From a virus (taxonomy: Duplodnaviria; Caudoviricetes): 64,000 bases of DNA. Under the pieces are notes generated by a model. That model worked only from the letters and a program-made list of their open reading frames with translations, did no database searches and was not told where the DNA came from. Position 1 is the first letter of the stretch. Every line of letters begins with the position of its first letter. A program made the translations under genes and the position numbers. Location: positions 340 through 64,339 of IMG/VR virus record IMGVR_UViG_3300024348_000029; one strand, written 5' to 3'. Below, one piece after another: positions 11,330 through 11,510 of the stretch.

Positions 11330-11362
11330 AAAAAAAAATCCCTCTAATTTCTTAGAAGGATT
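11330..11362 (-). terminator. attenuator terminator of tRNA operon B (Ala..Ile2, 11 tRNAs)
   Basis: AATCCTTCTAA-GAAA-TTAGAGGGATT + T-run abutting the 5' end of tRNA-Ala. Confidence 0.9.
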
Positions 11363-11389
11363 CCTTGTATACTGTTATGTCTGTTCACA

Positions 11390-11473
11390 TCAGCCTGCAA
11401 CGGTTCCTCCAGAAGAGATCTTATCAATCCCGCCTACTCTTACTATCGTCGCTATGTCCATTACTGAATTCAC
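11390..11473 (-). CDS. attenuator leader peptide B: (M)NSVMDIATIVRVGGIDKISSGGTVAG
   Basis: GTG at 11473 (or ATG at 11461); 15 consecutive codons for amino acids of the downstream tRNAs; TCTT-CT-GGAGGA-A-CC antiterminator. Confidence 0.85.
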   Translation of the reverse strand: MNSVMDIATIVRVGGIDKISSGGTVAG

Positions 11474-11502
11474 TGAAAATGTTTTATCTTTATATTAAGT
11501 GA

Positions 11503-11510
11503 CAAATATA
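11503..11510 (-). promoter_or_regulatory. Bacteroidota-type -7 promoter element (TATATTTG), operon B
   Basis: exact TAnnTTTG consensus. Confidence 0.75.

Follow-up and report, generated by a model that had tools for sequence, protein, structure and literature searches.

Ribosome-mediated attenuators of amino-acid biosynthesis operons are well known from trp, his, leu, thr and ilvGMEDA. The pheST (pheM) attenuator and the T-box riboswitches control aminoacyl-tRNA synthetase genes, and T-boxes bind uncharged tRNA directly via a specifier codon and the T-box sequence. The -33 element of flavobacterial promoters is TTG. The tRNA-cleaving toxin VapC4 is said to have been found by Barth et al. in 2021 to engage leaderless short open reading frames (ORFs) for Cys in mycobacteria. 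A preprint describes leaderless cysteine-rich short ORFs that act as attenuators in mycobacteria (bioRxiv 10.1101/834739). A study of Flavobacterium psychrophilum infers leader-peptide attenuation from structured 5' regions that precede amino-acid biosynthesis operons, and places the flavobacterial -7 box, TAnnTTTG, at -12 to -5 (PMC9723704). Among the roles proposed for phage tRNAs are codon compensation, the replacement of host tRNAs after degradation of their pool, and evasion of tRNA-cleaving defence (PMC10264068, PMC12409363). In this study, a short ORF that precedes an 11-tRNA operon was analyzed in a 64,000-nucleotide stretch of viral DNA (hereafter the window; positions 340 to 64,339 of IMG/VR record IMGVR_UViG_3300024348_000029). 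The ORF and its flanks (leader B) probably constitute a ribosome-mediated leader-peptide transcription attenuator, which would place the tRNA operon (operon B) under feedback from the supply of its own tRNAs.

Anatomy and folding of leader B

All tRNA genes of the window lie on the minus strand, between 7496 and 12842. The genes of operon B follow the order Ala(tgc), Lys(ttt), Ile(gat), Gly(tcc), Met(cat) twice, Asp(gtc), Thr(tgt), Val(tac), Arg(tct) and Met(cat). A preliminary description, made from the letters of the sequence, had proposed a sensor of 15 codons ahead of these genes, and its sequence, coordinates and codon reading (minus strand, 11473-11390) were found to be right. The 15 codons are limited to Met, Asp, Ile, Ala, Thr, Val, Arg(AGA), Gly and Lys, which matches operon B, and the Val codon preceding the ATG extends the run of operon B amino acids to 16 codons (Table 1). 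GGC is the sole exception to the match, as had been noted; 14 of the 15 codons are cognate by strict wobble, with ATA scored as read by a CAT tRNA on the assumption that one of the three CAT tRNAs is a lysidine-type Ile2 tRNA.

The amino acids of operon B account for 56% of all residues encoded by the 37 long ORFs of the window, so that a 16-codon run is by itself just moderately rare; it ties for the longest in the six frames of the window, which contain two runs of at least 16 codons. The match was further evaluated by means of the minimal covering stretch, which is the shortest stretch in which no anticodon species of the operon lacks a strict-wobble codon. In leader B, all nine anticodon species are covered within 11 codons (8-18), which occurs in none of the 116,592 six-frame segments of that length in the rest of the contig. 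Past the start codon, 22 of the 26 codons specify amino acids of operon B and 18 have a strict-wobble cognate in it.

The promoter-like site upstream of the ORF is also matched by a sigma-70-like scan (11533-11505). The suggestion that translation starts at GTG, with the ATG as an internal codon, agrees with the comparison of related phages, since GTG is kept in all three B-type leaders (window, L012 and the Cellulophaga phage phi4:1), L012 has no ATG at the position of the ATG in the window, and phi4:1 has no in-frame ATG at all. The untranslated region of the B-type leaders is ∼25 nt long. In leaders A and C of the window, in leader A of phi4:1 and in L014_2, an ATG is located 4 nt past the -7 box, which points to leaderless mRNAs. 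Both the promoter and the start codon of leader B are putative assignments.

The terminator of leader B has a 9-bp stem (TCCTTCTAA / TTAGAGGGA) closed by a GAAA loop (11360-11339, -10.2 kcal/mol) and is followed by T9 at 11338-11330, with a spacer of 29 nt between the stop codon and the hairpin. The tRNA-Ala gene begins at 11329, the base next to the T9 run, which leaves no space for an internal promoter. The hairpin recurs at leader A with 95% identity over 38 nt, and a simple terminator scan picked up the leader A copy and not the leader B copy.

Pairing of the GGAGGA region with the 5' arm of the terminator had been proposed by eye and was reproduced using ViennaRNA. The untranslated leader (144 nt) folds into a 1:2 helix (11452-11397) plus the terminator at -38.8 kcal/mol (z -3.5), with none of 200 shuffled sequences as stable. 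When the 3' arm of the terminator is left out (11434-11348), the antiterminator is predicted at -24.6 kcal/mol (z -2.7; one of 200 shuffles as stable), in which GGAGGA, together with the bases on either side of it, is paired to the spacer and to the 5' arm of the terminator. The position of the ribosome was represented by a mask that extends over the RNA as far as 12 nt from the first nucleotide of the codon in the A site, a footprint that is general knowledge. With this mask, the antiterminator of leader B is predicted with the A site at codons 1-18 and is lost from codon 19.

In silico, therefore, the reading of leader B as a leader-peptide attenuator is supported, all of the sequence-level elements being present and conserved: a short ORF between a promoter-like site and the first tRNA, codons related to the regulated genes, an intrinsic terminator before the first of these genes, and a predicted antiterminator that depends on ribosome position and excludes the terminator.

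Known RNA families were searched using Rfam. In the window, only tRNAs reach the gathering score. In the region 8900-13100, no leader family of the His, Leu, Thr or Trp type was found at E <= 10, and the T-box gave no match either at the gathering score or at E <= 10. A candidate PyrR binding site (RF00515) at 11329-11419 was rejected, as its 24.4 bits against a gathering score of 54 bits (E = 3) are at the noise level.

Leader codons and operon tRNAs across related phages

Operon B is flanked by two further operons with leaders of the same design. Operon A contains tRNAs for Pro, Glu, Gln, His, Leu(tag), Leu(taa) and Arg(acg), and operon C contains those for Tyr, Ser, Ser, Asn, Cys, Trp and Phe, so that the three operons jointly serve all 20 amino acids. 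Altogether, the design recurs in 13 leaders from six lineages (the window, L012, phi4:1/phi17:2, L014, L015 and L035). The large terminase (TerL) of L012 is 77-78% identical to that of the window, and those of L014, L015 and L035 are 41-43% identical.

All three operons and all three leaders also occur in the Cellulophaga phages phi4:1 and phi17:2 (A, MKIQRLHLQELEQP...; B, (V)QLTKTGITVIDKTKGARA...; C, MKTNYCTYNNSNWSFSY...), with tRNA sequences that have strongly diverged from those of the window. In L012, operon B has neither a Lys nor an Arg(tct) tRNA, and codons for Lys and Arg are likewise missing from its leader B (N TAI N IAVVIMTGADMA). Operon A of L012 is similarly without Leu(taa) and has two Pro tRNAs; the Leu codons of its leader A are CTA and CTT only, and the leader has two Pro codons. 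In the L014-type lineages (L014, L015 and L035) the tRNAs are grouped differently and the leaders track the grouping: LLECRLWLEE is located upstream of Glu, Leu, Leu, Trp, Cys and Arg(acg), and KNISINTGINKTDKVDSR upstream of Arg(tct), Lys, Met, Gly, Asp, Asn, Ser, Ser, Thr, Ile and Val. Wherever an Arg tRNA is present, the Arg codon family agrees with the isoacceptor, CGN codons occurring with Arg(acg) or Arg(gcg) operons and AGA with Arg(tct) operons. Ser and Leu codons of both families occur where both isoacceptors are present. This covariation of the leader codons with the tRNAs of the operon is the decisive new evidence for an attenuator.

Over the 13 leaders, 87 of the 89 anticodon species of operon tRNAs have a strict-wobble codon in their own leader, and the two that are missed are U34 tRNAs of four-codon boxes, for which the leader carries a U-ending codon. 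The minimal covering stretch has zero or one null occurrence in nine of the leaders; the weakest are L012_B (53), L035_2 (24), L014_1 (12) and L012_A (7), each of 116,592. Three leaders present each tRNA once and in a row, namely L014_2 and phi41_C, each with six species in six codons, and L015_2, with five species in five codons. The fraction of codons 2-19 that match the operon is 0.50-1.00 for the leader's own operon versus 0.00-0.44 for the other operons of the same genome. G-ending wobble codons account for 32 of 91 in the sensors against 23% in genes, a mild difference in a set of leaders that are not independent.

The RNA elements recur along with the codons. Every one of the 13 leaders has a hairpin (-8.8 to -14.8 kcal/mol) with a run of 4-9 T behind it, and the distance from the stop codon to the hairpin is 23-29 nt in ten of them and 33, 34 and 42 nt in the others. 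Under the ribosome mask, the last permissive codon is located 0-2 codons ahead of the end of the cognate run in 11 leaders. The mean energy of the duplex between the 3' part of the ORF and its own terminator 5' arm is -11.3 kcal/mol, compared with -7.1 kcal/mol for foreign arms.

Specificity was assessed in a screen of all loci with at least four tRNAs, in which every tRNA with at least 100 nt upstream was taken together with the first 4-12 downstream tRNAs and was scored when a stretch of no more than 1.6 codons per species, located in the 220 nt before it, covered all species. Duplicates were left out (13 loci: L002, L025, L026, L031, L036, L039, L043, L052, L087, L092, L094, L096 and L108). 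Among 56 candidate starts, 11 scored with at least four species, comprising ten leaders and one spurious four-species match in L001. The related loci contributed 19 of the candidate starts, from which ten of the 13 leaders were recovered; L012_B and L014_1 were missed because their covering stretches are too long, and leader C of the window because an HNH gene lies before tRNA-Tyr. Unrelated phages obtained with two tRNA-derived patterns were used as controls. None of the 37 starts in unrelated viral contigs scored with at least four species, nor did any of 15 further starts in Vibrio phage VPT02, Virus Rctr197k and Enterococcus phage EF24C.

The searches for relatives gave few loci. A TerL scan of viral contigs returned 22 loci, with tRNA clusters in L012, L014 and L015 only, and a TerL-profile scan of metagenome contigs returned 24, among which L035 was the only new one with tRNAs. 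The terminator pattern matched 41 loci, and none was relevant apart from L012 and a near-identical twin contig, L087; the L014-type leader pattern matched three, one of them by chance; two leader patterns found nothing beyond L012/L087; and a scan with the phi4:1 helicase found no locus beyond phi4:1. In genome contigs, the TerL profile yielded no confirmed relative, and the leader pattern matched 83 stretches, none of the 80 loci examined having it before a same-strand tRNA. No tRNA was found in MT835470.1, and the larger record of L021 has one.

Table 1. Positions in the window of leader B, its putative sister attenuators and associated genes
Feature	Position	Strand	Basis or remark
Promoter-like site of leader B: TTG, 20-nt spacer, TATATTTG -7 box at 11510-11503	11503-11533	-	TTG-N17-21-TAnnTTTG pattern
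Leader B ORF, 27 codons + TGA, GTG start, VNSVMDIATIVRVGGIDKISSGGTVAG	11390-11473	-	ORF listing
Sensor run, codons 4-19 (16 consecutive codons for operon B amino acids)	11417-11464	-	
Sensor codons 8-18, strict-wobble codon(s) for each of nine anticodon species	11452-11420	-	
Predicted 1:2 (anti-antiterminator) helix	11397-11452	-	Fold of untranslated full-length leader
Putative antiterminator 5' side, core GGAGGA at 11410-11405	11393-11416	-	Inside final ORF codons
Putative antiterminator 3' side	11350-11372	-	Spacer + terminator 5' arm
Intrinsic terminator, hairpin + T9	11330-11360	-	
Operon B, 11 tRNAs	10026-11329	-	ARAGORN, Rfam
Putative sister attenuator A	12860-13039	-	-7 box 13017-13010; precedes operon A
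Leader A ORF, apparently leaderless, MIKVLRHIELLEQPLQCNGRNPVFGVDGL (begins MIKVLRHIELLEQPLQ...)	13005-12916	-	
Leader A terminator, then T6	12887-12866	-	
Putative sister attenuator C	9000-9148	-	-7 box 9148-9141; HNH gene, then operon C
Leader C ORF, MKAIVCSYSNYNFWSIRSGGTSTV (begins MKAIVCSYSNYNFWS...)	9136-9062	-	
Leader C terminator, then T8	9027-9008	-	
HNH endonuclease gene (Pfam HNH, E = 2e-5)	8462-8911	-	Between leader C terminator and tRNA-Tyr

Proposed mechanism and competing explanations

In the proposed mechanism, transcription would begin near 11498, the predicted start, and a ribosome would initiate at the GTG at 11473 and read the 16-codon sensor, which holds at least one codon for each anticodon species of operon B. 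When charged tRNAs are ample, the ribosome would reach the TGA and cover the G-rich antiterminator arm (11416-11393), the terminator hairpin (11360-11339) with its T9 run would form, and RNA polymerase would halt one base before tRNA-Ala. If any one of the tRNAs were limiting, the ribosome would stall inside the sensor and leave the arm free to pair with the spacer and the terminator 5' arm, so that the terminator would be blocked and the operon transcribed. The net effect would be negative feedback on the supply of exactly the tRNAs of operon B. On balance, we lean towards a broader role, in which the three operons would form a tRNA-supply homeostat, each being gated by a 'barcode' leader with about one codon per tRNA, and a shortage of a single tRNA would switch on the operon that replaces it. 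The trigger could be the decay of host tRNAs after infection or their cleavage by a host anticodon-nuclease defence.

A number of observations weigh against the attenuator. The promoter pattern TTG-N17-21-TAnnTTTG is not enriched in the window, with seven matches versus 5.4 expected; two of the seven fall at leaders A and B, where the sigma-70-like scan matches as well. Non-cognate codons occur in or beside the runs (N and S in leader B, Ile in the A leaders and Asn in L012_B), and some codons have no detected tRNA, such as CGA in L012_A (no Arg(acg)), CGT in L015_2 (no Arg) and TGG in L035_2 (no Trp); these unmatched CGA, CGT and TGG codons may be relics. According to the folding predictions, a ribosome stalled at codon 19, the final one of the sensor, would not leave the antiterminator free to form, and two of the 13 leaders are exceptions in folding, as the antiterminator of leader C of the window (win_C) is predicted at all ribosome positions and that of phi41_C is patchy. 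In leader B, the duplex of the 3' part of the ORF with the terminator 5' arm alone is weak (-8.0 kcal/mol) and ten of 11 different terminator arms bind equally well or better, and thus the antiterminator depends on the added spacer pairing. Since leaders of one type are homologous across lineages, the 13 leaders are not independent events. The signal itself is ambiguous, because host tRNAs read the same codons and amino-acid starvation mimics tRNA shortage. Furthermore, the window sequence is listed in DNA metagenome runs only and in no RNA run, and coupling of transcription and translation is presumed for these hosts. The direction and size of regulation in vivo are likewise presumed.

In a more general explanation, the attenuator reports overall ribosome or translation capacity, or amino-acid starvation, instead of the specific tRNAs, and the codon match is a by-product. 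Any slowdown of translation would trigger the same architecture, the antiterminator is predicted without a ribosome in six of the ten leaders folded, which corresponds to a default ON state, and the sensing of charged tRNA cannot tell lack of an amino acid from lack of a tRNA. However, a sensor of this kind needs no particular codons, yet 87 of the 89 tRNA species are represented; the covering stretches with zero or one null occurrence in nine of 13 leaders, and the shift of the codons with tRNA content between lineages, also speak against it, and we consider it unlikely. It is very unlikely that there is no regulation at all, such that the hairpin and T-run end an upstream unit or small gene, the tRNAs arise from constitutive read-through or from processing, and the ORF is a chance or ordinary one. 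Small ORFs are indeed common in AT-rich intergenic DNA, and the annotators of phi4:1 labelled the B-type ORF a hypothetical protein, but the T-run adjoins the tRNA with no room for a promoter, the geometry of ORF and terminator is kept across very diverged lineages with widely differing tRNA sequences, and the codon coverage statistics and covariation, together with the absence of the pattern from all 52 control starts, would be left without explanation.

The output stage of terminator and antiterminator is also used by T-boxes and protein-dependent attenuators, which raises the possibility that a structured RNA senses tRNA directly in a T-box-like manner, or binds a protein in the manner of PyrR or TRAP, and that the ORF is incidental. 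The weak PyrR-site match at 11329-11419 (24.4 bits, E = 3) would fit the latter. Such an RNA is highly improbable, however, since no T-box or other Rfam family was found at the gathering score, nor at E <= 10 except for this noise-level match, no repeated protein-binding motif is seen, and what is conserved is the reading frame and the identity of the codons relative to the tRNAs rather than the nucleotide sequence of the leader. The explanation to which we attach the lowest probability is that the peptide is a functional product that acts in trans, for example on the translation apparatus, and that its composition reflects this function. Attenuator peptides that act in trans in other bacteria have reportedly been described in studies of peTrpL, which provides a precedent; nevertheless, beyond composition the peptide sequences are not conserved between lineages, the composition follows the tRNA set of the operon, and the conserved SGG-like tail coincides with the antiterminator arm of the RNA.

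Genomic context and comparison with known systems

The window represents most of a 64,339-base virus record, the completeness of which is estimated at 37%, and its sequence is contained in marine metagenome runs. Default ARAGORN detects 22 tRNAs in the window and Rfam also 22, including one at 7756-7828 that is not called by default ARAGORN. With relaxed settings, ARAGORN gives 25 tRNAs in 7496-12842, the additional ones being Ser(tga) at 8154-8240, Ser(gct) at 8064-8146 and Trp at 7755-7828; five relaxed calls outside this interval are probably false. The operons divide the genetic code roughly by the first codon letter: C-first codons are read by five of the seven anticodons of operon A, A- or G-first codons by all nine of operon B, and T-first codons by five of the seven of operon C.

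Since the HNH gene precedes tRNA-Tyr, read-through at attenuator C would transcribe a homing-endonuclease-like gene first. Between operon A and the promoter-like site of leader B are two small coding sequences (87 and 93 amino acids; 11517-12040, minus strand) that phi4:1 does not have. The second is rich in Cys, and its PHD-finger matches are all below threshold. A gene resembling winged-helix regulators (TrmB, HTH_36 and MarR-type matches) at 13088-13888 on the plus strand is divergent from the promoter-like site of leader A. The large terminase of the window (17669-19852, plus strand) is a distant relative of crAss-like phage terminases (22-28% identity) and has no phi4:1 match in the tblastn listing, and the gene order of the tRNA-plus-leader module is nonetheless the same in both; this suggests movement of the module between phage backbones.

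Four DNA metagenome runs contain near-identical contigs only, with few variants. The variants in marine metagenome contigs are located at 11338-11415 and 9076, the latter a T>C change within the antiterminator arm of leader C. One marine contig diverges in leader B, with six differences over 11415-11483 and a joint that skips 76 bases. In L012, the place that Leu(taa) and Arg(acg) occupy in the window, between tRNA-Leu(tag) and leader B, is taken by a different ORF. In phi4:1 (L001, KT962245.1; loci 3137-3238 and 5247-5366), the leader B ORF is annotated as Phi4113_075 with a start inside the promoter, the hypothetical protein Phi4113_076 overlaps the tRNA-Ser(tga) call, and leaders A and C carry no annotation. 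When leader A of phi4:1 (L001, ∼6250) and that of phi17:2 (L002, ∼6050), both on the minus strand, are compared by eye, the sole difference noticed is a change from CAG to CAA, which is synonymous, both codons being read by the tRNA-Gln(ttg) of the operon.

Searches of the literature, which did not extend to subscription journals and supplements, brought up no leader peptide or attenuator placed ahead of tRNA genes. The words promoter, terminator, leader and attenuation are absent from a survey of viral tRNA clusters that includes Cellulophaga phages. If the proposed reading is correct, this would be the first known leader-peptide attenuation of tRNA genes, would carry classical attenuation beyond metabolic genes and into the decoding machinery, and would represent a demand-driven counter to tRNA-targeting immunity. 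It would also mean, in the decades-long debate on the role of phage tRNAs, that at least some phages regulate tRNA supply by demand. Both phi4:1 and its host are cultured, and the attenuator idea is therefore directly testable. As a rule for annotation, short ORFs ahead of phage tRNA clusters would be treated as leaders instead of hypothetical proteins, and such leaders may serve synthetic biology as compact natural parts for multi-tRNA sensing.

Of the systems described in bacteria, that of F. psychrophilum likely belongs to the same host family as the phage leaders and has the same promoter grammar, with TAnnTTTG at -12 to -5, whereas its attenuation signals concern amino-acid operons, and the passages that treat them do not mention tRNA genes (PMC9723704). 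The occurrence of such signals in the likely host family speaks for the proposed attenuator. The mycobacterial Cys ORFs are similar in that they are leaderless and that the speed of their translation controls downstream genes, and they provide a precedent for the readout of a tRNase. Unlike the phage leaders, they are host-encoded, respond to one amino acid or tRNA only (Cys) and regulate cysteine-responsive protein genes, with no feedback on tRNA supply. The pheST (pheM) attenuator and T-boxes resemble the putative phage attenuators in reading the state of the tRNA pool to control a component of the translation apparatus; however, their targets are synthetases, whereas those of the phage leaders are tRNA genes. 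In architecture, the phage leaders resemble the trp, his, leu, thr and ilvGMEDA leaders, with a short ORF of regulatory codons, mutually exclusive 1:2, 2:3 and 3:4 helices and a terminator before the first gene. Stalling at hungry codons likewise would lead to read-through, and the thr and ilv leaders themselves sense more than one amino acid. In contrast to these trp-type leaders, the phage leaders are phage-encoded, would control tRNAs and not enzymes, and are apparently leaderless in several copies, and in place of homopolymeric codon runs their sensors contain about one codon for each of the 4-10 tRNA species of the operon.

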